Source: an uncultured Actinomycetota bacterium (lineage in GTDB: Bacteria; Actinomycetota; Actinomycetes; Actinomycetales; Microbacteriaceae). Taken from it: DNA of 64,000 bases. Shown in pieces: positions 1,752 to 46,270 of the stretch; the stretch's first letter is position 1, and each line of letters begins with the position of its first letter. The translations under genes were made by a program, and so were the position numbers. Location of the stretch: the NCBI GenBank assembly GCA_963791605.1, contig CAWBTB010000002.1:108887-172886 (forward strand), written 5' to 3'. The notes below the pieces were generated by a model that made no database searches, was not told the origin of the DNA, and worked only from the letters and a program-made list of their open reading frames with translations.

Positions 1752-2850
1752 TGTACTTCCCCGGCAGGTTGTGAACGGCTGGGGTAGGCGAAGACCTCCG
1801 GGCAGGATGTGGGTTACCACACTCACACTCTGACCACGGAGGTCTTCGTGACTCACGCTAACGCGCCCTTGACGCCGGAGGGGCGTCGTCGTCTTGCTGT
1901 TCTCGTCGTCGATCGGGGCTGGAGCTTGCGCCGGGCAGCGGAACGGTTCCAATGCTCACCCGCGACGGCGAAGCGATGGGCTGATCGATACCGGCGAGGG
2001 TGGCCGTTGACAGATCGCAGCTCGAGGCCGCGAACCTCACCGAACCGGTTGCCGCGCAAGGCGGAGCGACGCATCGTGTCGTTGCGATTCACCCGCCGGT
2101 GGGGGCCGCACCGGATCGCGTATCACCTGCACCTCACACGCTCGACGGTCGGGCGGGTCCTGGCCCGGTACGGGATGCCGAAGCTCGCGAACATCGACCA
2201 GGCCACCGGGCTGCCGGTCCGCAAACCCAAGCCGGTGCGTTACGAGGTCGACAGGCCAGGACAGCTCGTGCACGTGGACATCAAGAAGCAAGGTCGGATC
2301 CCTGACGGCGGCGGATGGCGGGCACACGGGCGCGGCTCCGCGCAGGACCGCGCGGCCGGTGTCGTCCGAGACAAAGCCACCCGGGCAGGAGCGGCCGGCT
2401 CACGCGGCTACCGGTATCCTGCACCATGCTGTCGACGACCACTCCAGGGTGGCGTACTCGGAGATCCTCGACGACGAACGCAAGGAGACCGCCGCGGGAT
2501 TCTGGACGCCGCGCGAACGCGTTCTTCGCGAGCCTCGGCGTGACCGTCACCGCGGTGATGACCGACAACGGTGCATGCTACCGATCCCACGCTTTCGCGA
2601 GACGCCCTCGGCGATAACGTCAAGCACAAGTGGACCCGCCCCTACCGGCCGCAGACCAACGGGAAAGTCGAACGCTTCAACCGAACCCTCGCGGCGGAAT
2701 GGGCCTACGCGAGGCCTACTACACCGAGCGAAGCCGAACGCGCCGCGGCTTACGACACCTGGCTGCATCACTACAATCATCATCGACCCCACACCGGCAT
2801 CGACGGCAAAACCCCCTCAGAACGCGTTCACAACGTCACGGGGAAGTACA
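1752..2850 (+). mobile_element. IS481-family insertion sequence (~1.1 kb)
   Basis: 26-bp terminal inverted repeats TGTACTTCCCCGgcagGTTGTGAACG (1752-1777) and the reverse complement of 2825-2850 (23/26 identical); 6-bp target duplication GCTAGG at 1746-1751 and 2851-2856. Confidence 0.95.
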
Positions 2851-2855
2851 GCTAG
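1848..2855 (+). CDS. IS481-family DDE transposase (frameshifted in this sequence)
   Basis: THANAPLTPEGRRRLA N-terminus, PGQLVHVDIKK, AVDDHSRVAYSE, VMTDNG and RPQTNGKVERFNRTL..EWAY spread over three frames. Confidence 0.9.
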
Positions 2856-2871
2856 GCAGTCGTCGCCGCAG

Positions 2872-3447
2872 TCAGACGCCGATCAACTTCCGCATCTGAT
2901 CGATAACGGACGATGCGGCATCCAGGTCCGTCGTCGCGTCAGTGCCGGCCGATAGTGCGACTTGAGTTCGCTGCAGCGCGGAGTCGAGCTGAGATAAGAG
3001 CGTGCTCCAATTCGGGCTGATCTCGGACGGAGCGCCGAGATCAGCCATGCGCTGAAGAGCGCCGCGCATGTTCTCGATGACCTGCGTGCCTGAAGGGTCG
3101 GCGCTGCCTCGGAGCGTCGCAATGCCAGATGTTATGGAGTCGAGTCGAGGGACAACGGCGTCGCGGAACGTCGAGAGATCGGGCGGCGGTGGCGCAGAGG
3201 GGGAGCGCGCCGGATCCGGCGCCGGTGAGGGGGACACCGCCGGGGTGGACGTGGACGTTGGGTGTGACGCACTCGGCGTCGCCGATGGCCGCCGTTCGTC
3301 GGCGCTATGGGGAATGAAGAAGATCACCAGGCCCAGGGTGACGAGGAGCACGAGCCCGACCAGCAGAGCCGTCAGCGCGATTCTCGGGCCGCGCTTCTTC
3401 GTCTCCTCGGGGAAGACCCAGACGGCCTCCGGCTTCTGCTCGCTCAC
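2872..3447 (-). CDS. Membrane-anchored hypothetical protein (one TM, Pro/Ser-rich linker, helical C-terminus)
   Basis: 191 aa ORF abutting the upstream glycosyltransferase stop; hydrophobic segment at about aa 22-45. Confidence 0.7.
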   Translation of the reverse strand: MSEQKPEAVWVFPEETKKRGPRIALTALLVGLVLLVTLGLVIFFIPHSADERRPSATPSASHPTSTSTPAVSPSPAPDPARSPSAPPPPDLSTFRDAVVPRLDSITSGIATLRGSADPSGTQVIENMRGALQRMADLGAPSEISPNWSTLLSQLDSALQRTQVALSAGTDATTDLDAASSVIDQMRKLIGV

Positions 3448-4410
3448 TCAGTCCTCCAGAGCAGGCATCGGACGCCAGCTCTTGTCGCGGCCGATCCGGC
3501 CGCCGTCGCGCAGGCCCCGGAACAGGTTGCTGGTGCCGCGCACGGTGCGCTCCACGAACACCAGCCGGATGAGCTCCTTCGCGAACGTCATCGCGGTGCC
3601 GAGCCCGAACAGGACCGGGTTGTACACGTCGTGCACGCAGTAATACTGCTTGAGATATGCCCGGTTGCGCATGATGTAGTAGCGGTACGCGTTGCTCGAC
3701 GCGTTCATGTGCCGGATGCCCATGTCCCATTGCCGGATCTCGCGGGTGCGGCGCAGCACGAACTCGTCGACGATCACGGCCTGCGTCTTGCGCGACGCGA
3801 GCCAGCCGTACATCTGGTCGTCCCAGTAGATGAAGAACCGCGGATCCGGCAGGCCGATCTGCTTGACGATCGAGCGGTGGATGAACATCCCCTCGAAGCA
3901 GCCGCTGTTCATCGGCTTGAACCCGGTGGCGTCGAAGCCCGCCGGGGCGAACGGGATCGGGATGCCCATGCGCTCGGCGATCCGGTACTGCCAGTAGAAC
4001 GCGCTGCCGTCGTAGTCGTAGCGCCGGCCCTGGATGCTCTTGAACCGCGGCGCCCACGCGCCCATCCGGGCGAGGCCGTCGGGGAGCACCTCGACGTCGT
4101 CGTCCATCATCCAGATCCACTCGGATCCCAGCTCGTACGCGGTGCGCATGCCCTCGCTGAACCCGCCGGATCCGCCTGTGTTGGTCTCCAGACGGCGGTA
4201 CACGAGCTCGGCGCCCAGCTTCTCGCGGTACGAGTCCACGACCTCGGTGGTGTCATCGGAGGAGGCGTTGTCGATCACGACGACGCGCCCCGGCTTCGGA
4301 TCCATCTGCACGATGCTGTCGAGGAGCCCGGTGAGCAGATGCGAGCGGTTGAAGGTGACGACGACGATCGTCGCGCTGGCCGGGTCGAAGTCGACGGCCG
4401 GAACGCTCAC
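3448..4410 (-). CDS. GT2 glycosyltransferase, galactofuranosyltransferase GlfT1-like
   Basis: VVVTFNR, VIDNASSD, NTGGSGGF, WIWMMDDD, FFIYWDD motifs; GTG at 4410 with AGGAG RBS overlaps the upstream stop. Confidence 0.85.
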   Translation of the reverse strand: MSVPAVDFDPASATIVVVTFNRSHLLTGLLDSIVQMDPKPGRVVVIDNASSDDTTEVVDSYREKLGAELVYRRLETNTGGSGGFSEGMRTAYELGSEWIWMMDDDVEVLPDGLARMGAWAPRFKSIQGRRYDYDGSAFYWQYRIAERMGIPIPFAPAGFDATGFKPMNSGCFEGMFIHRSIVKQIGLPDPRFFIYWDDQMYGWLASRKTQAVIVDEFVLRRTREIRQWDMGIRHMNASSNAYRYYIMRNRAYLKQYYCVHDVYNPVLFGLGTAMTFAKELIRLVFVERTVRGTSNLFRGLRDGGRIGRDKSWRPMPALED

Positions 4411-6326
4411 GAATGCTCCTCGAACGTCGTCAGCCATGCCTCTGCGGACACCAGTTCCGGCAGCGCCTCCCGGTATTGCTTTCGGAGCTCGGGCCAGCGT
4501 CGGCGCAGTTCGGTGTGCAGCCGCAGGCTCTCGCGGAGAAGTTCGCGGAACTTCGCCCTGTCGCGGGTGTACACGTTATGTCCGGATCCGTCGGCCGCGC
4601 TCACCAGAACGCTGTCATACAGCGGCACACGCCACCAATTGGCGTCACCTTTGCCGAACTCCACTTCCGGACGCCCGACGTTGCGTGCGTTGGGCTTGTG
4701 GAACCAGTGCGACACGAGCGTCGACGCCGTAAACCAGCGCAGCTTGAGACCTGTCGGGCTGTCGTACACGTGCGTCTTCATCCGTTTGAACACGAGTCGA
4801 CCACGCCACGACCGCATCGGCACGCCGGAGTCCTTGTGGATGACGGTCTCTGGGAAGTCTGCAGCGATCGCGCGAGCCTCGGGCATAGCCGTGGCGAGAT
4901 TTGCACGCATGTGCTGTGGTCCGGAGAGCACGTCGCGCAGGGCCTTCATGCGCAAGGCGGCCGGGTAGTACTGCATCATCATCAGGTGTTTCAGGTCGAC
5001 CCGTCGACTGTGCCGCAGGAGCGTTCCGCCACGATGAGCGTTCGAGTGAATCAGGGCTGCTGCGATCCTATTGCGGACGTGAAAGTATGCCTGCCAGTCG
5101 ATCGAGTCATCTTTGCCCACCCAGGAGACATGCCAAAGAGCCACTCCGGGAAGGGATACGGTCGGGAACCCCGCTTCCCCGGCGCGCAGGCAGAATTCCG
5201 CATCGTCCCATTTGATGAAAGCGGGGAGGGCGAGCCCGACTTTGCGGATCACCTCGACCGGGATCAAACACATCCACCAGCCGTTGTAGTCCGCGTCCAG
5301 GCGCATGTGCAGAAGCGGCTGCTGCCGAAGGTTCACTGCGGAGAAATCGTGAGGCATCTTCTCCTGGAACAGGTTGCGCCACATGAACGAAGACTCGTCT
5401 ACGACCTCCGCCCAGGCGTGCAGCTTGGGACGGTCGAGCAGATCGAACATGTGTGCCCCGACGAGAGTGGGCGTCGTGGCGTAGCGCCCGAACGTGATCG
5501 AACGGCGCAACGACTCCGGTTCGATGCGGACGTCGTCATCCAGGAGCTGGACGAAGTCGCTCTCGGGACGTTGCAAGGTCTCGAACATGGCGCGAGCGAA
5601 GCCGCCTGAACCCCCGAGGTTGGGCTGAGTGATCACCTGCAGCGTCTCGCCGAGACTCTGTGCGATCGCGGGGTACTCCTCGCGGGCGTCCACGCGCTGA
5701 GTCCCCTGGTCGATGAGGAAGATCCGATCGACAAGTTCGAGCGCCTCCGGGGCATCGATGAGCGCCTGGAGTGTTTGCACGCAGTAGTCCGGCTTGTTGT
5801 ACGTAGTGATGCCCAGCGAGGCCTTGCCCGCGCGTACCGGCTCCTGCTCGGTCGTCCACTCGGCGCCCTCGAAGATCGACTCATCGTGGTCGGCGACGAT
5901 GTCGAACCAGATCCATCCGCCATCACTGTACTGATCCAGTTTGATATCGAATGACGAAGAGGCCGTGCCGTCCACCTCTCGGGTCGCGATGCGCTGACGC
6001 GTGCCGCCGCCGTTCGACCGGTATACGAGCACTGTGGCGCGTCCGTCCGTGCGCACAGTGAGGCGGATGTCACGCACAGCGGTCCAGTGCTGCCAATACG
6101 AGGCCGGGAACGCGTTGAAGTATGTCGCGAAGGAGACACGGCGGCCGGACACGATCCGTGCGCGGTTGCGTCCCAGGACATTACCGAGGTGCGCTCGGTT
6201 CGATACACGGACCGGCTCTTCGTCGATGACGGACCACGTCTCGGGGTCGGCGTAGAGCGGAAGGAGGTCGGGGTCGCGCTCGAGGGGGAACACGACGTTC
6301 TGAAGGACGTGGGTCAAGACAGGCAC
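4407..6326 (-). CDS. Galactofuranosyltransferase GlfT2-like (polymerising GT2); start approximate
   Basis: SFATYFNAFPASYWQHWT, QPNLGGSGGFARAM, LLDDDV, DYNGWWMCLIP, FIKWDDAEF, WQAYFHVRN. Confidence 0.88.
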   Translation of the reverse strand: MPVLTHVLQNVVFPLERDPDLLPLYADPETWSVIDEEPVRVSNRAHLGNVLGRNRARIVSGRRVSFATYFNAFPASYWQHWTAVRDIRLTVRTDGRATVLVYRSNGGGTRQRIATREVDGTASSSFDIKLDQYSDGGWIWFDIVADHDESIFEGAEWTTEQEPVRAGKASLGITTYNKPDYCVQTLQALIDAPEALELVDRIFLIDQGTQRVDAREEYPAIAQSLGETLQVITQPNLGGSGGFARAMFETLQRPESDFVQLLDDDVRIEPESLRRSITFGRYATTPTLVGAHMFDLLDRPKLHAWAEVVDESSFMWRNLFQEKMPHDFSAVNLRQQPLLHMRLDADYNGWWMCLIPVEVIRKVGLALPAFIKWDDAEFCLRAGEAGFPTVSLPGVALWHVSWVGKDDSIDWQAYFHVRNRIAAALIHSNAHRGGTLLRHSRRVDLKHLMMMQYYPAALRMKALRDVLSGPQHMRANLATAMPEARAIAADFPETVIHKDSGVPMRSWRGRLVFKRMKTHVYDSPTGLKLRWFTASTLVSHWFHKPNARNVGRPEVEFGKGDANWWRVPLYDSVLVSAADGSGHNVYTRDRAKFRELLRESLRLHTELRRRWPELRKQYREALPELVSAEAWLTTFEEHS

Positions 6327-25455: not shown

Positions 25456-26873
25456 CGATCCGGGGATCCGGGGGCCGCCCAGCCGTCATCCTGCGGCCGC
25501 GCCCACGGGCTCTCCTGCATCGGCGGAAGCGGCGCGGGGGCGGCCGACGGCGCGGCGGGCGATGCCGGGTACGCCGGAGGCAGCTGCGGGGGCGCCGGAG
25601 CCACGGGCGCCGGAGCCCCAGGCGCCGCGTACGCAGGCGGCGCCTGGTAGCCCGCCGGTGCCGGGTACGCGGGGGCCGGATACCCCTGCGGCGGCGCCGG
25701 ATACCCCTGCGGCGGCGCGGGATAGCCCTGCGCCCCGTACGCCGCCGGCGGGTAGTAATAGGGGGTCGCGGCCGCGGGCGCGGGACGGAATCCCCGCCGC
25801 ACCGCACGTCCGGCGTCGACGCGGAACGGATCGGATCCGTCGTCGTACCCCGCCGCCCTGCGCTCCATCGTCGCCATCAGATCCTGATCCAGCCCCTCGT
25901 AGCGCATGCGGCAGTCGATGTAGATGAGGGCTCCGGCGGTCGACTGCACGACGGCGCTGATCGACTGCACCACGACGACCGCGAGTTCGGTGATCACCAG
26001 CGACACGATCGCGGCGGTGCCGAACGAGGTCGCCGTGTCCCCGGTGGGGCTGAGCACCGCGCCGAACAGAGAGGTGACGAGGCCCGCGACCATGCTGAGC
26101 ATCTGCGAGAGGACGTAGAAGATCGCTCCGATCAGGAACACGACGCCGAACGCGAACCAGAACCGTCCGCGCGTGAGCCGCCAGGAGCGGACCACGGCCT
26201 CGCGGATCCCGGCCCCCTCGAGCACCAGCAGCGAGGGAACCAGCATGAGCTTGGTCCCGATCCAGATCGCGAGCAGCAGCACGCCGAGCATGCCGACGAT
26301 GCTGACGATGATCGTGAAGACGAGTCCCGCGCCCTGGAAACCCGTCGGGATCCCGATCGCCCCGAACGCGATCGCCATCACCAGGGCGACGGCCAGCACG
26401 GCGGCGAGGCCGTAGAGCAGGATGTAGCCGATCAGCCGCCAGGCGGCGGGCTTCACGCGCTGCCACAGCACCCGCAGGGTCGCCGGTTCGCGGAGCACGG
26501 CCGCGCGCACGTCCGCGGCCACGATGCCCTGCACGATCGCGCTGAACGCCGCCGAGAACAGCCCCATCAGCAGACCCGCGAGCCCGATGAAGGCGAAGGA
26601 CCCCAGGTACAGGGTGATCCAGTCGTCGCTGCCGGGCCGCACCGTGTCCAGGCGGGAGAGGGTCGCGGCGGCCACCCCGCCGACCACCGCGCCGACGACG
26701 ATCAGGACAGCCAGCTGCACCACGATCGCGAACCCGAACAGCACCTTCGGGTTGTGCCGCAGCGCCGAGAACGACTTGCCGAGCACGGTGCCGAACCCGA
26801 GCGGGCGCAGCGGGATCAGGCCCGGTTTGGGCGCGGGGGTCCACCCCGTTCCGCTCACAGTCTGTCCGCTCAC
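25452..26873 (-). CDS. Conserved polytopic membrane protein with a Pro-rich tail; first gene of the MoxR operon
   Basis: GWTPAPKPGLIPLRPLGFG..L..SF, RSW.LTRGRFW, YID.RMR.EGLD; true start likely GTG 26873 rather than 27341. Confidence 0.8.
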   Translation of the reverse strand: MSGQTVSGTGWTPAPKPGLIPLRPLGFGTVLGKSFSALRHNPKVLFGFAIVVQLAVLIVVGAVVGGVAAATLSRLDTVRPGSDDWITLYLGSFAFIGLAGLLMGLFSAAFSAIVQGIVAADVRAAVLREPATLRVLWQRVKPAAWRLIGYILLYGLAAVLAVALVMAIAFGAIGIPTGFQGAGLVFTIIVSIVGMLGVLLLAIWIGTKLMLVPSLLVLEGAGIREAVVRSWRLTRGRFWFAFGVVFLIGAIFYVLSQMLSMVAGLVTSLFGAVLSPTGDTATSFGTAAIVSLVITELAVVVVQSISAVVQSTAGALIYIDCRMRYEGLDQDLMATMERRAAGYDDGSDPFRVDAGRAVRRGFRPAPAAATPYYYPPAAYGAQGYPAPPQGYPAPPQGYPAPAYPAPAGYQAPPAYAAPGAPAPVAPAPPQLPPAYPASPAAPSAAPAPLPPMQESPWARPQDDGWAAPGSPDR

Positions 26874-27005
26874 GAGTCCTCCGGTTCGCGTGGTGGCTCC
26901 ATCGTGCCACACCGCCTGCGACGCGGTAGGCCGCGAAAGAATGCCAAGAAGGCGATCGCAGGGCGACGAATCCGTGATACTCGACCGACACGCTATTGTG
27001 ACGAC

Positions 27006-30000
27006 GTGACGAAGCACGCGCCCGCCTCCGCGGTGGGGATACGCGACCTGGCGCACTGTGCCGAAGCCATCGCCCTCGGGCGCTCGGTCGCGGTGCAGAC
27101 CATCAATTCTGCAGCTCCTGTGATGTTTCAACTGTTGCAGTATGGCGTCCTCGCGAGCCTCATCAACGGCGAGCCAGATAGTGCCACCGTCCGTCGCATC
27201 GCGCTGCAGTTCTCTCAGCTTGCTTCCGCTAACGACGCACGCGACATCGTGCCCCTCGTTGACTGGTGGCACATGGTGTTTCTCGGGGAAGCGCTCGACG
27301 GAAGCTTTCACCTCGGTGCGCGCGTTCCGAAACAGCTGCATGCCGCCCTGCGGCGCGCCCTACCGCACCGCAGGGCGCTCCTGCACCGGGCACTGCAGAG
27401 CTGGTACATACACAGTGTTGTTGCGTTGCGCCAGCTCGCCGATCAGCCGACTCCGACCGATCGGGTCATCTTCGAACGGCTGATGATCCAGAACGCGGAC
27501 GCTGCGATCGCCGCGCTTCAGGACGGTCGAGTCGAGTTGCTCGACGACATTCTCGGTCGATCTCCTGAGGACCTGGTCACACGGGCCGACCCTGGGCGCA
27601 CCATCCCGAGGAACGGGGTGCGATGGCCGGGACTTGTGGAACGCGCCCGCGAGTTGCAGGAAGCTGTGGCCTGCGCTCGCGAGACGGCGGTAGCAATGGG
27701 ATCGCTCGAGTCCGACACAGATTTCGACCCTGCTCGCATTGGCGGTGCCTCGTTCGGCCTCTACGAAAGCCTGGTGACGGGTGTCGAGCGCAACATGTGG
27801 GACTCAGTCTGGATTCCCGCACATGAACTCTCTCAGAACGCCGCCCAGTGCCTAGCCGCACTTCTTCACATGCTGGGTGTGCGCTCTGACGAGGTAGTGG
27901 CGGAGTGGGATGCGATCGACAGGGAGACCGCACCCTACCGTGGCGAGCTGAACAGCCTTCTGGGGGAAGCGTCGTCGGGGGTTGACACCGCGGCGGCGAG
28001 AGAAGCCGCCGATGCCCTGAGGTGGGGGCTCGTCGACGACGCCCAGGTTTGGATTGCGGAGTTGCGTGCGACACTCGCCCTCGAGCGGATGCGATTGCGC
28101 AGTGCCGCCCTCTCCGGATTGGTCGGTCGGCTTCACGACGACGAAGAACGGCGGCGCGTGCGCGCGCTGCTGGAGTCGGCGAACGTGCTTCTCGCCTCGG
28201 GCAACGCCACGCCGGTCTCCGATCTCCTGGCGCTCGCCGAGAATATTGTCGAGCGCCAGGGCGATGTGGCTTGGCCGTCCCGAACCGGTAACGCTGAAAC
28301 TTCGGACGAGGTCTGGCCAGATTCGGCAGATCACCCGCCCGACGGCCTGCAGGCCCGGGCGAGAACGGCTCTGGCGGCCGGGCACTTTGACGAACTGATT
28401 GCTCTAGCACCCAGCATGGTTGGCGCGGAGGATCAATGGTTCTGGCGTCTACTGGCCAACGAGGTACCGATCGCTTCGAGGGCAAAGGTTTGGGTCGGTG
28501 TGCGGCGGCCTTACCTGGAAGTAACTGAACGCAACGATGACCTCACTGGTCTCCTCCTGCCACCCCAGCCACCACGGGTCATATCGCTTTCCGGAAGTCC
28601 GGCCGATCGTTCGCTCCTCGTGCACCAGCCCAAGCGCGAGTTCACCCTCACGAGCCGAGAGATTCCCGTTGTCGATGGCGCGATCATCGCCCTCGAACAT
28701 TCCGATCCGGCAACCGCCGCCGACTTATTCCGGCAGTCGTTTCAAGAAGGCTGGTTCCCCGGACTGGGTCACGCCGTTGCTTGTTATCTGGAGGCGGGAC
28801 GCCCCGATCGCGCGCTGTCGAGTTACGCCGACTTTCTGGTCGCCTATCCAACGGGCTTCATCGCCCCCGGCGTCGCGTGGAACCTCGCCGTCGCATACGA
28901 GTGGGTGGGCGAGGTAGCGAGGTCCGCCGCCTCTCTGCGCTACTTCTTGCGCGTGCTGCCCGGTGACCTGATCGACGATCAGGCCACACAGATCGGTCTG
29001 TTCGAAAAGCGCCATCCTGGCGCGGTCGGCCAGATACCCGCGGTCGCGGCACTCGCCCCGGTGGAACAGCCCAGGTCCGGGACGGCGCGTACCAACCGAA
29101 CACCCCAGAGCGAAAACCAGTTGCAAGAGATCCGGGCACGCGAGGAATACGAGCGCGGCGACACCCGTGCTGCAATCGTACGTCTCCGGCGTCACCTCGA
29201 GAAGGTCCCCCGATCGCCCGCAGCGCATCAGCTCCTGAAGTACTATCGCGAACTCGGGCAGTGGGAGCCGGCCGAGAAGCTTATCGCCGACCTGGATAGG
29301 CGAGGTACCGCTTCGTGGCGTCACTTCGTTGAACTCGCACGGGTTCAACTCGTCTGCAACCGATTCGCCGAGGGCATCGCCGTGCTCGATCAGATCGTCA
29401 CCGCGAATGAAGGAATCGCCTTTGACGCCACTTATTCGGCGTTGCGCGAGCAGCTTGAACGGTCGCTCGATGAGGAGCACAGATCGAAGGAACGCCTGAA
29501 CCCGACTGCGCCGAGCGGTACGAGCGACCATGACGGACAGACGCCCCTGTCGCGCGACGACTTGCGCCGAGTCCTGCTTCGCTACGTCACCGACGGCGAG
29601 CTCGCGCGAGCGGTTGCCCTGGCTGACTCGTCCACATCGGTCGGATCGTGGGCTGCCATCGCCCTTCTTGAGGCGGTGCGCGACCTGTCGCCATCGCTGG
29701 CGGACGACGATAATCGCGCGCGCCTAATCGAAGTGCTCGCCCGGGCAAGCGTGCCGGTCGTCATCCAGACGGTCGAGGTTCTGCGCGTCGCCGCGGATCG
29801 CGAAGCTGAGTCAGCGCCGCGTATCCGAGCCGACGTCATCCGGCTGCTTGAGCTGGCTCGTGGATACGACGAGACTCCATTGCGCTCCATCCGGTTGGGC
29901 TGGACCCTCGCCCGCGCGCTGGAGGCAGCAGACCGCGAGCCAGAGGCGCAGCAGATTCTAACTGCCATTATGCCGCCGCCGCCCAATCGGGACGTCCTCC

Positions 30001-33000
30001 CAACGGTTGATTCTTTGCCTCGCATCGATCCGTTGTTCCTCTCGATTAACATCACGAATGCGATGCCCGAATCTGTGGTGCGGGCGCTCGGCGCCGCGCG
30101 GTCAGCCGTCGGCGACCCGGCCCGTGTCGCCGACAGCTGGGTGACCGCGTTCGACGAAGGTGCTGTGATTGCAGGGCCTTCCGCAATCGGATGGCTTGTC
30201 GCTGCGGGTCGATGCGCCGAAGCGCTCGACTTCTACCTGCGCAATGAGAAGCGAATAGTCCCGAACGCAACACTTCTGTGGAACATCGCGGCGGCGCTTG
30301 CGAACTGTGGTCAGTACACGGAGGCAGTCCGCTGGTTCCGCACCGCCAGCGACCTTTCGCAGAACGACCCGCCAGGGAGCCTCCGCGAGGCGCGTGACGC
30401 TCTGTTTGCTTACTTGGGCGAGTCTCCGCCGTCGCCGCGGACGCCGTTCGAAGAGTTGCCTGATCCTGCCGCGCCTATCACGCCAGGCCTGTTCCGACGA
30501 GTCGTCAAGATACTGCGGAACAGACTATCGAGCGGGCGAATAGCACTCGCTGATGCCTACGCCGTGGGGCTGAAGTATTACGGCGGGCTCGCTGACCCAG
30601 CGAGCGCGCGAGGGCCATGGGCGGTACTGCTCCATGAGACAGAGCACAGCGACGAGGCGTATATGCTCCTCGCCGAGGTGCTATCTGAGGCCGATGCCTC
30701 GAATCTGCCTTTCGTTGGGTCCTTCGTCAAGGTTGCGGAGCGGACAGGACGCGCTATCGAGGGGATAGCCGTCATCACGAGGCTGCCGAAGAATTCTGCC
30801 GTGCTCGTGGCGCGGGCCAAGCTTGAGCTCGCAGCTGGCGATCGTGCGGCTGCGAAGAAGTCGCTCGAAGCCGCCCTCGCTCTCTCGCCGCGCCACGACG
30901 AAGCCTCGAAACTCTACGCGCGCCTCGGGAAACCCATGGTCGAGTCCCTTGAAGCGCTTGGTCCGCTGTTCGAGGCTCCGGCGGTGCGGGCTGTCACCCG
31001 CACGGCGAACGGCGACATCGAGGTCGTCCTTGGTCTGCGGATCCGCCGAGCCCTCTCGCAGGTGATCTGCGCGATCGGTGACGCCACACCCATTGCGGAG
31101 TGGCATGATCTGTTGCCGTGGACCGTATCCGACGCCAAGTGGCAGTGGCACCTACTCCCAATCGCCGTGAAGGGTATTGCGCCGGCCGAGATTAGCGTCA
31201 CGCTTGTCGAAGACTTCGGTGACACGCACGTTCACAGAGTGACTCTGCCAGCCCCGCAAGCACCACAGACGGTCTTCCTCCCGTTCGACCCCAACGAGGT
31301 CGTCGAGGACCTGTTTGTCGGCAGAAGCGAGACGATACGCACTATCGAGGAGCACTACCGCGCTCGGAAACAGATCCTCTTTCTCGGAGGGCCCCGGCAG
31401 GTGGGCAAGTCCTCGCTCGTGGTTCGATGTCGCCGCAGGTCGAGGAATGGCGAAAGCGCTCTCACCTTTGTTTACATGGATGGGGAGAGATATGCCCGAG
31501 GGGAGTCTTTTCTCACTCAGGTGGCGGCCGCGATCAGCTTGGAACTCGAGCAGCGCGGTGCGGATGGGTTCGGTGATCCGCCGCCCGTCGTGACGGCCTT
31601 CCAATTCCAGAAGTGGTTCCGCGACCGGGTCGTTCCCTACCTCCAGCCCGATGGCATGGTGCTTGTGGTCGACGAGATCCAGGTGATGTTTGAGCGTCTC
31701 AGTGCGGAGGATCCCTCACAATCGCTCCTGCGTGAGACCGCTGGTGTGCTCCGGTCGCTAAATGCGGACGTCGACATCCCGCTGAAGATCCTCTTGCTCG
31801 GTTCATGTACGTTTGCGAGCGTTCGCGACCGGTTACTCGACACTAACATCGCCGACGAACTGCGCGAGGAGACCATCGGCTTCTTGACCCCGGAAGAGAC
31901 GCGAGAGCTGGTGGTAAAGGGATTCAATCAGGGCCGCAAGTCGGAGCCGTACTTCTTCGTCCTCCCGGACGCGTTCGACGAACTCTGGGCGATGACCGCG
32001 GGGTACCCAAACCACGTGCATTTGCTCGCTCGAAGGACGGCTGACCACGTCGCTTCCCGAGGCGCGCGAGTGATCTCGGCTGAGACGGTCCGTGACGCAG
32101 CGGAGACTCTCGTGAGATCCGGCCGCACTGTGGTTCAGCACCTGCTTGGACGCGAGCGGGAGCGGGAATATCAGCAACGCGTGCTCTCGGCTCTCGCCGA
32201 GGTGTACGGCTCCGACTCACCCGAAGACGCAGTGGATCCACCCACACTCGACCTACTGAAGAAGAGTCTCGGCCCTGAGAACGCGGAGGGTATCGAACGC
32301 TTCCTCCGCCTTGGTCTGCTCCGCGAAACCGATCAAGGTGCGATCGTGATCGCGAACGGACTTGCCTCGCGGTGGTTGACCGAGAACGCGATACAGCTGA
32401 GGTTCGGCATAGCAGGCCTGCGCGAACGGCCACAGTTCTCTGCGCTTCGCGACGCCGGATTCGCCCTGCAGGGCCAGCCTGCGACCGATGCGTTTGGCTT
32501 GTACATCGTGGTGGAGCGCGAAGGGAGTCTCTACCGTGCCCGCCGCGTCGCCCGCCCAGACGGGGTGAACCCGGACGACCTCATCCAGGTGAAGAGTGAG
32601 TCGCTGTTGGACGATAGCGCGGGCTGGGTCGAGGACGTCGTGGACCCCTGGCTACTCATCTCGCACGCGCAGGGACGCCCGCTCAGCGATTTCGTCCTGC
32701 GCGGACAGGCGGAAAACTGGGAATTGCGTGACACCATCGAAGTCGTCAAACGCATCCGGGATGCCGCGAGCGTGCTCCAGCGCCTTTTGACGGAATCGCA
32801 CTGGGTGCATGGCAACCTTAGCGAGGACAACGTGATCCACCGTGGTTCGCTGGGCACGTTTCTCGCCGACAGTGCGTTCGGTAGCGACTGGATGGTGGGG
32901 CCACTCACCCGCTTCACGCCGGGCCCGCTCCGCCCCCCACAGCAGCAGATCCGCTTTAACAGTGGCAAGCAGTTTTCACCGAAGGACGATGTCTTCGCGC

Positions 33001-33230
33001 TCGGTGCACTTCTCGTGCATGTGCTCGATCGGCAGGGACGCCACCCATACTCGATGGACCCCTCTGGTCACGCCGACGTGTACACGACCTTCATCGCACC
33101 GGAACAGGCGGGCGTCGACGCGGGCCTCGTGCGCATTGCGCGGGCAATGTGTGATCCCGACGAGGAGAGCCGCCCCGATCTCGATTACTGCCTGAGCACA
33201 CTCACTCGCTGGGTGGCGCCGTATCGCTGA
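27006..33230 (+). CDS. Giant multidomain protein: helical N-terminus, TPR repeats, STAND-type P-loop NTPase, C-terminal kinase-like (pseudokinase) domain; start uncertain (26754, 27006 or 27123)
   Basis: Open frame over 6.2 kb; LFVGR, Walker A GGPRQVGKS (31386-31412), Walker B VLVVDE (31659-31676), TAGYP (GYP at 32001); HGNLSEDN (32808), DDVFALG, ESRP. Confidence 0.85.
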   Translation: MTKHAPASAVGIRDLAHCAEAIALGRSVAVQTINSAAPVMFQLLQYGVLASLINGEPDSATVRRIALQFSQLASANDARDIVPLVDWWHMVFLGEALDGSFHLGARVPKQLHAALRRALPHRRALLHRALQSWYIHSVVALRQLADQPTPTDRVIFERLMIQNADAAIAALQDGRVELLDDILGRSPEDLVTRADPGRTIPRNGVRWPGLVERARELQEAVACARETAVAMGSLESDTDFDPARIGGASFGLYESLVTGVERNMWDSVWIPAHELSQNAAQCLAALLHMLGVRSDEVVAEWDAIDRETAPYRGELNSLLGEASSGVDTAAAREAADALRWGLVDDAQVWIAELRATLALERMRLRSAALSGLVGRLHDDEERRRVRALLESANVLLASGNATPVSDLLALAENIVERQGDVAWPSRTGNAETSDEVWPDSADHPPDGLQARARTALAAGHFDELIALAPSMVGAEDQWFWRLLANEVPIASRAKVWVGVRRPYLEVTERNDDLTGLLLPPQPPRVISLSGSPADRSLLVHQPKREFTLTSREIPVVDGAIIALEHSDPATAADLFRQSFQEGWFPGLGHAVACYLEAGRPDRALSSYADFLVAYPTGFIAPGVAWNLAVAYEWVGEVARSAASLRYFLRVLPGDLIDDQATQIGLFEKRHPGAVGQIPAVAALAPVEQPRSGTARTNRTPQSENQLQEIRAREEYERGDTRAAIVRLRRHLEKVPRSPAAHQLLKYYRELGQWEPAEKLIADLDRRGTASWRHFVELARVQLVCNRFAEGIAVLDQIVTANEGIAFDATYSALREQLERSLDEEHRSKERLNPTAPSGTSDHDGQTPLSRDDLRRVLLRYVTDGELARAVALADSSTSVGSWAAIALLEAVRDLSPSLADDDNRARLIEVLARASVPVVIQTVEVLRVAADREAESAPRIRADVIRLLELARGYDETPLRSIRLGWTLARALEAADREPEAQQILTAIMPPPPNRDVLPTVDSLPRIDPLFLSINITNAMPESVVRALGAARSAVGDPARVADSWVTAFDEGAVIAGPSAIGWLVAAGRCAEALDFYLRNEKRIVPNATLLWNIAAALANCGQYTEAVRWFRTASDLSQNDPPGSLREARDALFAYLGESPPSPRTPFEELPDPAAPITPGLFRRVVKILRNRLSSGRIALADAYAVGLKYYGGLADPASARGPWAVLLHETEHSDEAYMLLAEVLSEADASNLPFVGSFVKVAERTGRAIEGIAVITRLPKNSAVLVARAKLELAAGDRAAAKKSLEAALALSPRHDEASKLYARLGKPMVESLEALGPLFEAPAVRAVTRTANGDIEVVLGLRIRRALSQVICAIGDATPIAEWHDLLPWTVSDAKWQWHLLPIAVKGIAPAEISVTLVEDFGDTHVHRVTLPAPQAPQTVFLPFDPNEVVEDLFVGRSETIRTIEEHYRARKQILFLGGPRQVGKSSLVVRCRRRSRNGESALTFVYMDGERYARGESFLTQVAAAISLELEQRGADGFGDPPPVVTAFQFQKWFRDRVVPYLQPDGMVLVVDEIQVMFERLSAEDPSQSLLRETAGVLRSLNADVDIPLKILLLGSCTFASVRDRLLDTNIADELREETIGFLTPEETRELVVKGFNQGRKSEPYFFVLPDAFDELWAMTAGYPNHVHLLARRTADHVASRGARVISAETVRDAAETLVRSGRTVVQHLLGREREREYQQRVLSALAEVYGSDSPEDAVDPPTLDLLKKSLGPENAEGIERFLRLGLLRETDQGAIVIANGLASRWLTENAIQLRFGIAGLRERPQFSALRDAGFALQGQPATDAFGLYIVVEREGSLYRARRVARPDGVNPDDLIQVKSESLLDDSAGWVEDVVDPWLLISHAQGRPLSDFVLRGQAENWELRDTIEVVKRIRDAASVLQRLLTESHWVHGNLSEDNVIHRGSLGTFLADSAFGSDWMVGPLTRFTPGPLRPPQQQIRFNSGKQFSPKDDVFALGALLVHVLDRQGRHPYSMDPSGHADVYTTFIAPEQAGVDAGLVRIARAMCDPDEESRPDLDYCLSTLTRWVAPYR

Positions 33231-33729
33231 GCGAGGAAAATTGTGCCCCCGACCGTCGCCAACGGGCGCCCCGCGCATCCGTGAACTCTACGACGACATC
33301 AAGGATTGCATCGTCCGGCACCGCCACGGCATACCAGACCGCAATGTCTGAACGCCCCTGAGGTGGCACGACCGGGATCCGCTGCGCTTCAGGCACCGCG
33401 GATCCCTCTGTCGATTTCAGTGTCACGACTAGCGCGAAGATCGCCATGTCGCTCGAGTTCTCGATGTGCGCCACGACGTCGGTGTACTTGCCGTTGCCAG
33501 CCACGACCTCTGACCACGCGGTCACTCTCCGAACTTGCTCCTCAGTCTCCGCGCGCTGTTCCCTCTCGGCGCGCTCAGCCTCGCCGGACTCCGCCTCTCG
33601 GCGATCTCGGCGGGATCGGGCGTCCTCCAGCACGAAGGCAAGCAGCGCGAGCGGTGTAGCGACGGCGGCCACCCAATCGGGGATCGAGCCCCAGTTCCAG
33701 CTTGCGACGAGAACGGGCCAGTCGTTCAC
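33202..33729 (-). CDS. Small membrane-anchored hypothetical protein (175 aa)
   Basis: WGSIPDWVAAVATPLALLAFVL TM, charged coil, then a beta-rich domain ending VEFTDARGARWRR; GTG at 33729. Confidence 0.7.
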   Translation of the reverse strand: MNDWPVLVASWNWGSIPDWVAAVATPLALLAFVLEDARSRRDRREAESGEAERAEREQRAETEEQVRRVTAWSEVVAGNGKYTDVVAHIENSSDMAIFALVVTLKSTEGSAVPEAQRIPVVPPQGRSDIAVWYAVAVPDDAILDVVVEFTDARGARWRRSGAQFSSLSDTAPPSE

Positions 33730-33913
33730 GGGGCTCCCCTCCGCCGACGGTCGTCGGCGTCTTATGGGCCAAGTGTGGCATCCGCGAGGCGTCGCGCGAA
33801 TCACGGGACGCCCGGGGCTTCCGCGTACTTCGCAGGACGTGAAGTACGCTGGTGCCACGTGTGGGGCGCCTCGGGGGCGTCCGCACGCCTTGGACGAAAG
33901 ACGGCTGGGCACA

Positions 33914-43456: not shown

Positions 43457-46270
<2,814 letters not shown>

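Follow-up and report, generated by a model that had tools for sequence, protein, structure and literature searches.

A giant gene with a convergent partner

We analysed a stretch of 64,000 nucleotides (the window, whose coordinates are used throughout) from an uncultured bacterium of the Microbacteriaceae (assembly GCA_963791605.1, contig CAWBTB010000002.1, positions 108,887 to 172,886), in which one gene encodes a giant protein of 2,074 residues and a second, small gene, its partner, converges on it and overlaps its 3' end (Table 1). The stop-free frame of the giant gene spans 26754–33230 on the + strand, translation being taken from a GTG at 27006, and the N-termini of the homologues join the alignment with the giant protein from about residue 6. 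G+C content at the three codon positions (GC1 0.71, GC2 0.48 and GC3 0.73) is even along the gene and is that of a real coding frame. The protein consists, in order, of an all-helical N-terminal domain, tetratricopeptide repeat (TPR)-like repeats, a linker, a P-loop nucleoside triphosphatase (NTPase) with a helical lid and a winged helix, and a kinase fold derived from PknB. The partner gene also starts with GTG, 4 nt downstream of a strong GGAGGGGAG ribosome-binding site. A small open reading frame (ORF) upstream of the giant gene (26524–27009), called as a gene in two homologous loci, was considered as a third component and rejected on account of its poor, low-complexity alignment.

Much of this architecture had been read from the DNA in a first-pass annotation, and our analysis upheld that reading. 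The frame of more than 2,070 codons is uninterrupted, Pfam matches and an AlphaFold2 (AF2) model recovered the claimed order of repeats, NTPase and kinase-like domain, and every NTPase motif that had been quoted (LFVGR, GGPRQVGKS, VLVVDE, ILLLGS and TAGYP) was found and is conserved across seven homologues. A search of 1.84 billion representative proteins gave 57 matches to the family of the giant protein, of which 14 had E values below 1e-30. A close clade of about 2,030–2,140 residues comprises proteins from Microbacterium, a Gordonia bin, Aeromicrobium sp. Root236, A. fastidiosum, Blastococcus litoris and metagenomes, and a longer clade of 2,300–2,800 residues includes a Streptomyces protein. 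Public records name the relatives 'hypothetical', 'ATP-binding' or 'TPR repeat' protein.

Table 1. Features of the giant gene, its partner and the adjoining insert edge, in window coordinates.
Feature	Position	Strand	Residues	Basis or remarks
Left insert edge and 146-bp upstream region of the giant gene	26860..27005			Comparison with same-genus genome L019
Giant gene (P0002)	27006..33230	+	2,074 codons	ORF and full-length homologues at 31–38% identity
N-terminal all-helical domain	27006..28685	+	1–560	AF2 model; conserved LDWW and IPxNGxRWP motifs
TPR-like repeat region	28686..30941	+	561–1312	Pfam TPR_19, TPR_14, TPR_2, TPR_8; extent from sequence alone
Linker between repeats and NTPase	30942..31289	+	1313–1428	
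P-loop NTPase core, helical lid and winged helix	31314..32435	+	about 1437–1810	AF2 and fold matches
Walker A, GGPRQVGKS	31386..31412	+	1461–1469	
Walker B, VLVVDE	31659..31676	+	1552–1557	Followed by a conserved Gln
PknB-derived pseudokinase domain	32436..33227	+	1811–2074	
Catalytic-loop HGN replacing HRD	32808..32816	+	1935–1937	Invariant in seven close homologues
Predicted partner-docking surface, last two pseudokinase C-lobe helices	33120..33212	+	2039–2069	Complex prediction
Partner gene (P0064)	33202..33729	-	175 codons	Convergent with the giant gene, 29 bp overlap

An apparently intact NTPase of AAA+/STAND-like type

The motifs LFVGR (residues 1436–1440), ILLLGS (1595–1600) and TAGYP (1664–1668) are invariant in the seven homologues, the last including G1666, Y1667 and P1668 of the GxP motif. 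In Walker A, G1461 to K1468 and S1470 do not vary among these proteins and residue 1469 is Ser or Thr; the G, K and S positions remain invariant once the longer clade is included, as do D1556, E1557 and Q1559 of Walker B across both clades. The NTPase is apparently intact and AAA+/STAND-like, STAND denoting the signal transduction ATPases with numerous domains.

The C-terminal module (residues 1425–2074, 650 residues) was modelled with AF2 from a 21-sequence alignment, with a predicted local distance difference test (pLDDT) score of 86.5 and a predicted template modelling (pTM) score of 0.81. In fold searches with this model, the best structure matches of the NTPase were 2qen, 2fna, RuvB, ORC and Cdc6, the last four all placed high by Foldseek and 2qen aligning over core, lid and winged helix, and a PDB sequence profile of the NTPase likewise led to 2fna, 2qen and ORC4. 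Most entries returned by the fold search were kinases, and the absence of solved STAND proteins among them is uninformative on class. Pfam searches with the whole protein matched AAA_16, AAA_35 and ATPase_2 at residues 1437–1671. For the isolated domain, AAA_16 passed its cut-off (37.4 bits against 32.6), nSTAND1 fell below its own (20.6 against 27.1), and ATPase_2 (PF01637) stayed under its gathering cut-off (22.8 against 33.2); AAA_22 and TniB also matched, and NACHT and NB-ARC were not listed. Across the family, 16 of 18 NTPase domains matched ATPase_2 at E values up to 0.01 (best 2.7e-10), and the relatives P0025 and P0029 exceeded the nSTAND1 cut-off.

By these matches the NTPase does not appear to belong with those of Avs, NACHT or NB-ARC proteins. 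The Walker A (GxxxxGK[ST]) and Walker B (hhhhD[DE]) patterns set out for STAND proteins (Leipe et al. 2004) are both present, and so is the succession of core, GxP helical domain and winged helix, a layout that is non-decisive as it is also found in ORC/Cdc6-type AAA+ proteins. The STAND assignment made in the first-pass annotation therefore holds for the Walker A and B motifs, the GxP motif and the winged helix, but the nearest structures are those of PF01637, RuvB, ORC and Cdc6 and the nSTAND1 match is sub-threshold, which leaves the class unsettled. The inverted domain order, which had been put forward as distinctive, is real but is not unique to the giant protein. In the remote NTPase relatives P0033, P0046 and P0027 the NTPase also lies at the C-terminus, of either full RelA/SpoT-TGS-ACT or beta-propeller plus CARDB proteins, so that this order is a habit of the NTPase group.

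The kinase fold is catalytically degenerate in the close clade

The C-terminal domain had been recognised as kinase-like, and both the model and its fold matches confirmed a kinase fold. Its profile matched PknB with an E value of 1.4e-24, and its closest relatives are actinobacterial PknB kinases. All seven close homologues, however, are catalytically degenerate: the beta3 Lys is replaced by Arg (R1846) and the HRD Asp by Asn (N1937), the Gly-rich loop is missing, and the catalytic-loop Asn is variable. Only the Asp at the DFG position is largely retained, one of the seven having Asn there. The giant protein thus lacks the complete residue set of an active Hanks-type kinase, and by these residues the close-clade domain is a pseudokinase that has lost its means of phosphotransfer. 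The longer clade mixes HGD and HGN, and since some of its members retain AxK, HGD..N and DWG/DWD, the loss in the close clade is derived.

A small, probably membrane-anchored partner is predicted to dock on the pseudokinase

In the partner, an N-terminal hydrophobic stretch is followed by a helix with many charged residues and a domain rich in beta structure. The best 17-residue stretch has a hydropathy of 1.5–2.0, and the protein is probably membrane-anchored at its N-terminus, with basic residues after the hydrophobic stretch suggesting that its bulk is cytoplasmic. At all seven close-clade loci (Microbacterium in this window, Gordonia, two Aeromicrobium species, Blastococcus and two metagenomes) a convergent gene for 160–190 residues overlaps the 3' end of the giant gene by 17–92 bp, and the encoded proteins are 31–40% identical with 16 invariant positions. 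The earlier notion of a single-gene system is not compatible with this constant pairing. In the longer clade, no partner gene was found in the three loci examined.

When residues 1425–2074 and the partner were predicted as a complex, the pair scored 0.70 against 0.37 for the best control. This mark was attained for 58 solved complexes out of 80 and for 2 mismatched pairs out of 110, counts that apply only approximately, our own alignments having been used. Three runs shared at least 97% of their contacts, and the pLDDT of the partner was at least 78. In the predicted interface, the partner beta-domain docks on the last two pseudokinase helices, contacting residues 2039–2069 with a strand around an invariant Trp and with a hairpin. 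Every one of the eight close-clade rows, seven from full-length proteins and one from the fragment P0010, has R2043 and W2069, which are not conserved in the longer clade; their restriction to the partner-bearing clade supports the predicted binding.

These data bear on two other roles for the domain. The giant protein might be a single-gene sensor of the nucleotide-binding leucine-rich repeat (NLR) type whose C-terminal kinase, once activated, phosphorylates targets as the effector. The fold is a genuine kinase fold, kinase effectors occur in defence systems (MkoA is matched here and PD-T4-6 in relatives), and the full catalytic set is retained in some longer-clade members. Against an effector kinase stand the residue losses in seven of seven close homologues and a partner gene, present at seven of seven loci, that is predicted to bind this very domain, and we consider the proposal improbable. 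We give similarly little credence to an integrated decoy, in which the pseudokinase would copy a host PknB-type kinase and bait an invader's kinase-targeting factor, with the N-terminal domain and TPR array or the partner providing the output. Descent from actinobacterial PknB kinases would suit a decoy, as would the loss of catalysis while fold and C-lobe surface are conserved, and the domain follows the NTPase, where classical STAND proteins generally carry their sensor. However, no invader factor is known, the sole predicted ligand of the pseudokinase is the module's own partner, and the sensor role would more usually fall to the long TPR array. We prefer to regard the pseudokinase as an adaptor for the partner.

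N-terminal domain, repeats and linker

The N-terminal domain, common to the close and longer clades, is helical throughout in its AF2 model (pLDDT 79), and residues D86, W87, G94, P201, N203, G204, R206 and W207 are invariant. Residues 1–560 gave no match under E 0.05 against PDB sequence profiles and none at E up to 0.001 with Foldseek, and in the Atlas a shape search reached a template modelling score of at most 0.27 and a feature search returned no usable match. The repeats, placed at about 28.7–30.95 kb in the first-pass annotation, are supported by a Pfam TPR_19 match of 42 bits against a cut-off of 25 and by TPR_14, TPR_2 and TPR_8 matches at residues 1089–1120 and 1266–1307, with weaker ones at about residues 700–800; the full extent given for them is a prediction. 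This region aligns with a Streptomyces 'tetratricopeptide repeat protein'. The linker, put down as beta-rich in the first-pass annotation and only putatively so, matched no PDB sequence and did not resemble the CARDB region of P0027.

The pair occupies a foreign insert and is patchily distributed

We place the host in Microbacterium, since its MoxR protein falls into a cluster at 90% identity with named proteins of that genus. Comparison with the same-genus genome L019 placed the two genes, and nothing else, in an insert of about 6.9 kb (about 26860–33740) between a MoxR-operon membrane-protein gene and mtrA. Only 213 bp separate the flanking genes in L019, against about 6.9–7 kb in the window, and similarity to L019 ends near 26843–26858 and restarts near 33740–33896. 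GC3 is 0.73 in the giant gene and 0.86–0.95 in the flanking genes. Searches of 36 genomes of the same genus and 24 of the same order did not find the giant gene, and its own genome has no second copy of the NTPase. Together, composition and comparative evidence indicate that the giant gene is accessory and foreign and that the pair is most probably horizontally acquired. A consensus scan found no sigma-70-like promoter in 26860–27005 and detected no promoter- or terminator-like site.

The family as a whole is patchy, being spread over four actinobacterial orders. In two Aeromicrobium species (L007 and L010, 10001–16650) the pair lies at the same site after a TetR/Atu (AtuA) cluster. Between these species the giant proteins are 46% and the partners 47% identical, compared with 74–88% for seven flanking genes. 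This contrast points to fast co-divergence or allelic replacement, and the locus is hypervariable.

Three further observations concern gene neighbourhoods and composition. The Gordonia locus (L001:3248-6377) has an ISL3 transposase and an HNH/DUF222 gene 4–6 kb upstream and is the only locus with mobility genes nearby. The Streptomyces longer-clade member P0004 (L005:3893-9716) adjoins a divergent CHAT-protease protein and a BTAD-NB-ARC-TPR protein. Elsewhere in the window, G+C content is 0.64–0.68 at 2001–6000 and 44001–46000, against 0.70–0.76 over most of its length, and with candidate ORFs there having a GC3 of 0.73–0.88, these segments may be further foreign DNA.

Partner-like genes elsewhere

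The same genome encodes a partner paralogue of 190 residues (contig 6, 398525–399091; L027:6517-7089, minus strand; hhalign probability 97.9), which lies tail-to-tail, across a 48-bp gap, with a gene for a membrane-anchored NERD protein. With a C5 DNA methylase, an MTaX1 protein and a mad2-like gene nearby, the surroundings look like a defence island. The NERD protein showed no similarity to the C-terminal module of the giant protein. Of 400 other genomes in the class, 16, from many genera, contained partner-like genes when a wider profile was used (for example L053:7875-8597 on the plus strand, and L050:7877-8941 and L061:7826-8575 on the minus strand). One such gene lies between Mrr and type I HsdR genes, one is beside a phage terminase large subunit, and another adjoins a gene for a 1,170-residue AAA_16 protein.

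A candidate two-gene conflict module

We interpret the locus as a two-gene, horizontally moving module made up of an NTP-driven giant switch, a dead-kinase adaptor and a membrane-anchored partner, with a conflict or defence role as the most likely one because of the patchy occurrence, the foreign composition and the fast co-divergence of both genes. We put the probability of this interpretation at roughly 45%, the immune role being what we infer from these features. The giant protein would be a cytoplasmic switch driven by NTP. Its helical N-terminal domain and long TPR-like array would probably form the ligand- or protein-sensing part, the NTPase with its lid and winged helix the oligomerising or switching part, and the dead kinase an adaptor whose last two helices hold the partner beta-domain. 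A ligand on the N-terminal domain or the TPR array might then lead to nucleotide-dependent assembly, and assembly could cluster or release the membrane-anchored partner, giving an output at the membrane.

A bolder version of this proposal is that the pair is an undescribed two-gene actinobacterial immune system in which a fused, PknB-derived pseudokinase serves a giant TPR-AAA+/STAND-like ATPase as adaptor or decoy in controlling a small membrane-anchored effector, and that the partner-like proteins scattered over restriction islands and prophages make up a new family of membrane outputs for conflict systems. We regard this as possible but doubtful.

Several observations weigh against a conflict module. 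The neighbours of the giant gene are housekeeping genes that change with the genus (MoxR/mtrAB, TetR/Atu and ABC transporters), and no defence-island neighbourhood was seen around it at the loci examined. The first-pass annotation had looked to patchy distribution and to defence-island neighbours as signs of an immune gene; the family is indeed patchy and accessory, but the neighbours are not of that kind. The majority of partner-like genes elsewhere likewise have non-defence neighbours. Neither flanking direct or inverted repeats nor mobility genes were found for the insert, and the window contains no tRNA gene. Neither the giant protein nor the partner has a recognised effector domain (nuclease, TIR, protease or pore former), and in the longer clade none could be recognised at the N-terminus. 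The hydrophobic segment of the partner is just marginally of transmembrane strength, the complex score of 0.70 is a model's confidence and not a measurement, and the two genes, being convergent, are not co-transcribed. Since the longer clade appears to do without a partner, the giant protein can presumably act alone.

Some of these points would be expected of a physiological regulator or scaffold ATPase, non-immune and active in envelope or developmental signalling, whose pseudokinase tethers a complex to a membrane adaptor. The housekeeping surroundings without a defence island and the lack of a toxic effector domain fit such a protein, and the locus common to two Aeromicrobium species is compatible with vertical descent there. 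Pseudokinases are, moreover, often scaffolds. Such a protein would resemble the large actinobacterial ATP-binding regulators, and PknK, which joins a kinase to a MalT-family domain, provides a precedent (bioRxiv 10.1101/2022.02.17.480717). A regulator would sit less well with a family that is very rare, patchy over four actinobacterial orders and not found in 36 same-genus genomes, with the foreign codon composition and clean insertion, or with a pair only 46–47% identical where its flanks are 74–88% identical; nor is there a DNA-binding output such as LuxR/GerE. On this evidence we hold a regulatory role to be unlikely, though worth keeping in view, and continue to favour a conflict module with a membrane-anchored partner.

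If the pair is a defence or conflict system, it would provide a bacterial example of signalling by an NLR-like ATPase via a dead kinase, which until now has been known chiefly in the immunity of plants, and the partner would represent a new family of small membrane proteins acting as outputs. It would also give the NTPases of the PF01637/AAA_16 group, hitherto of unknown function, a role as switches within giant multidomain proteins. As a regulator, the giant gene would instead be one more rare accessory gene of an ordinary kind. At 6.9 kb the pair is compact, and it is self-contained; with Lys1468, R2043, W2069 and the partner Trp as mutational handles these proposals are directly testable.

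Relation to known systems

As the first-pass annotation had supposed, no described system covers this architecture: PADLOC matched the kinase part only, and literature searches gave no description of it. The PADLOC matches were to MkoA (E 9e-9, model positions 88–278 of 1,112), weakly to MAD6 and, in relatives, weakly to PD-T4-6; none of its Avs or NACHT models was listed for the giant protein at E up to 1. With Mokosh MkoA, PD-T4-6 and MADS MAD6 the giant protein thus shares the kinase fold alone, no other part of these models being matched, and in the giant protein catalysis is lost.

The STAND/NLR-like conflict proteins (Avs, bNACHT and nSTAND1; Kaur et al. 2021, PMC8195603) have in common with the giant protein a P-loop switch, lid, winged helix, repeats and an extra signalling domain, and the GxP motif, the patchy, fast-diverging distribution and weak nSTAND1 matches are also seen in the giant family. 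Unlike these conflict proteins, the giant protein has a Gln after the DE of Walker B, a feature of PF01637 and AAA+ proteins, matches neither NACHT, NB-ARC nor the PADLOC Avs models, has no recognisable effector domain, and comes with a separate convergent partner gene. The classical order of effector, NTPase and C-terminal repeat sensor found in Avs and bNACHT is replaced by N-terminal domain and TPR array, NTPase and pseudokinase. The archaeal PF01637 ATPases PABY2304 (2qen) and SSO1545 (2fna) share the P-loop core, helical lid and winged helix, a strong structural likeness in spite of the sub-threshold ATPase_2 score of the giant protein, but are stand-alone proteins of about 350 residues and of unknown function, whereas the module of the giant protein is embedded in 2,074 residues.

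Mycobacterium tuberculosis PknK resembles the giant protein in combining an actinobacterial Hanks-type kinase fold with an AAA_16/MalT-type ATP-binding module. Its kinase is N-terminal and active, whereas that of the giant protein is C-terminal and degenerate; the giant protein also lacks a LuxR-type output and has a membrane partner. In plants, the NLR-type ATPase ZAR1 uses an RKS1-type pseudokinase as a protein-binding adaptor and not as an enzyme. The likeness to ZAR1/RKS1 is conceptual and implies no homology beyond the kinase fold: in the plant complex the pseudokinase is a separate protein on the repeat domain, whereas in the giant protein it is fused behind the NTPase, with a small membrane protein as its predicted binding partner.

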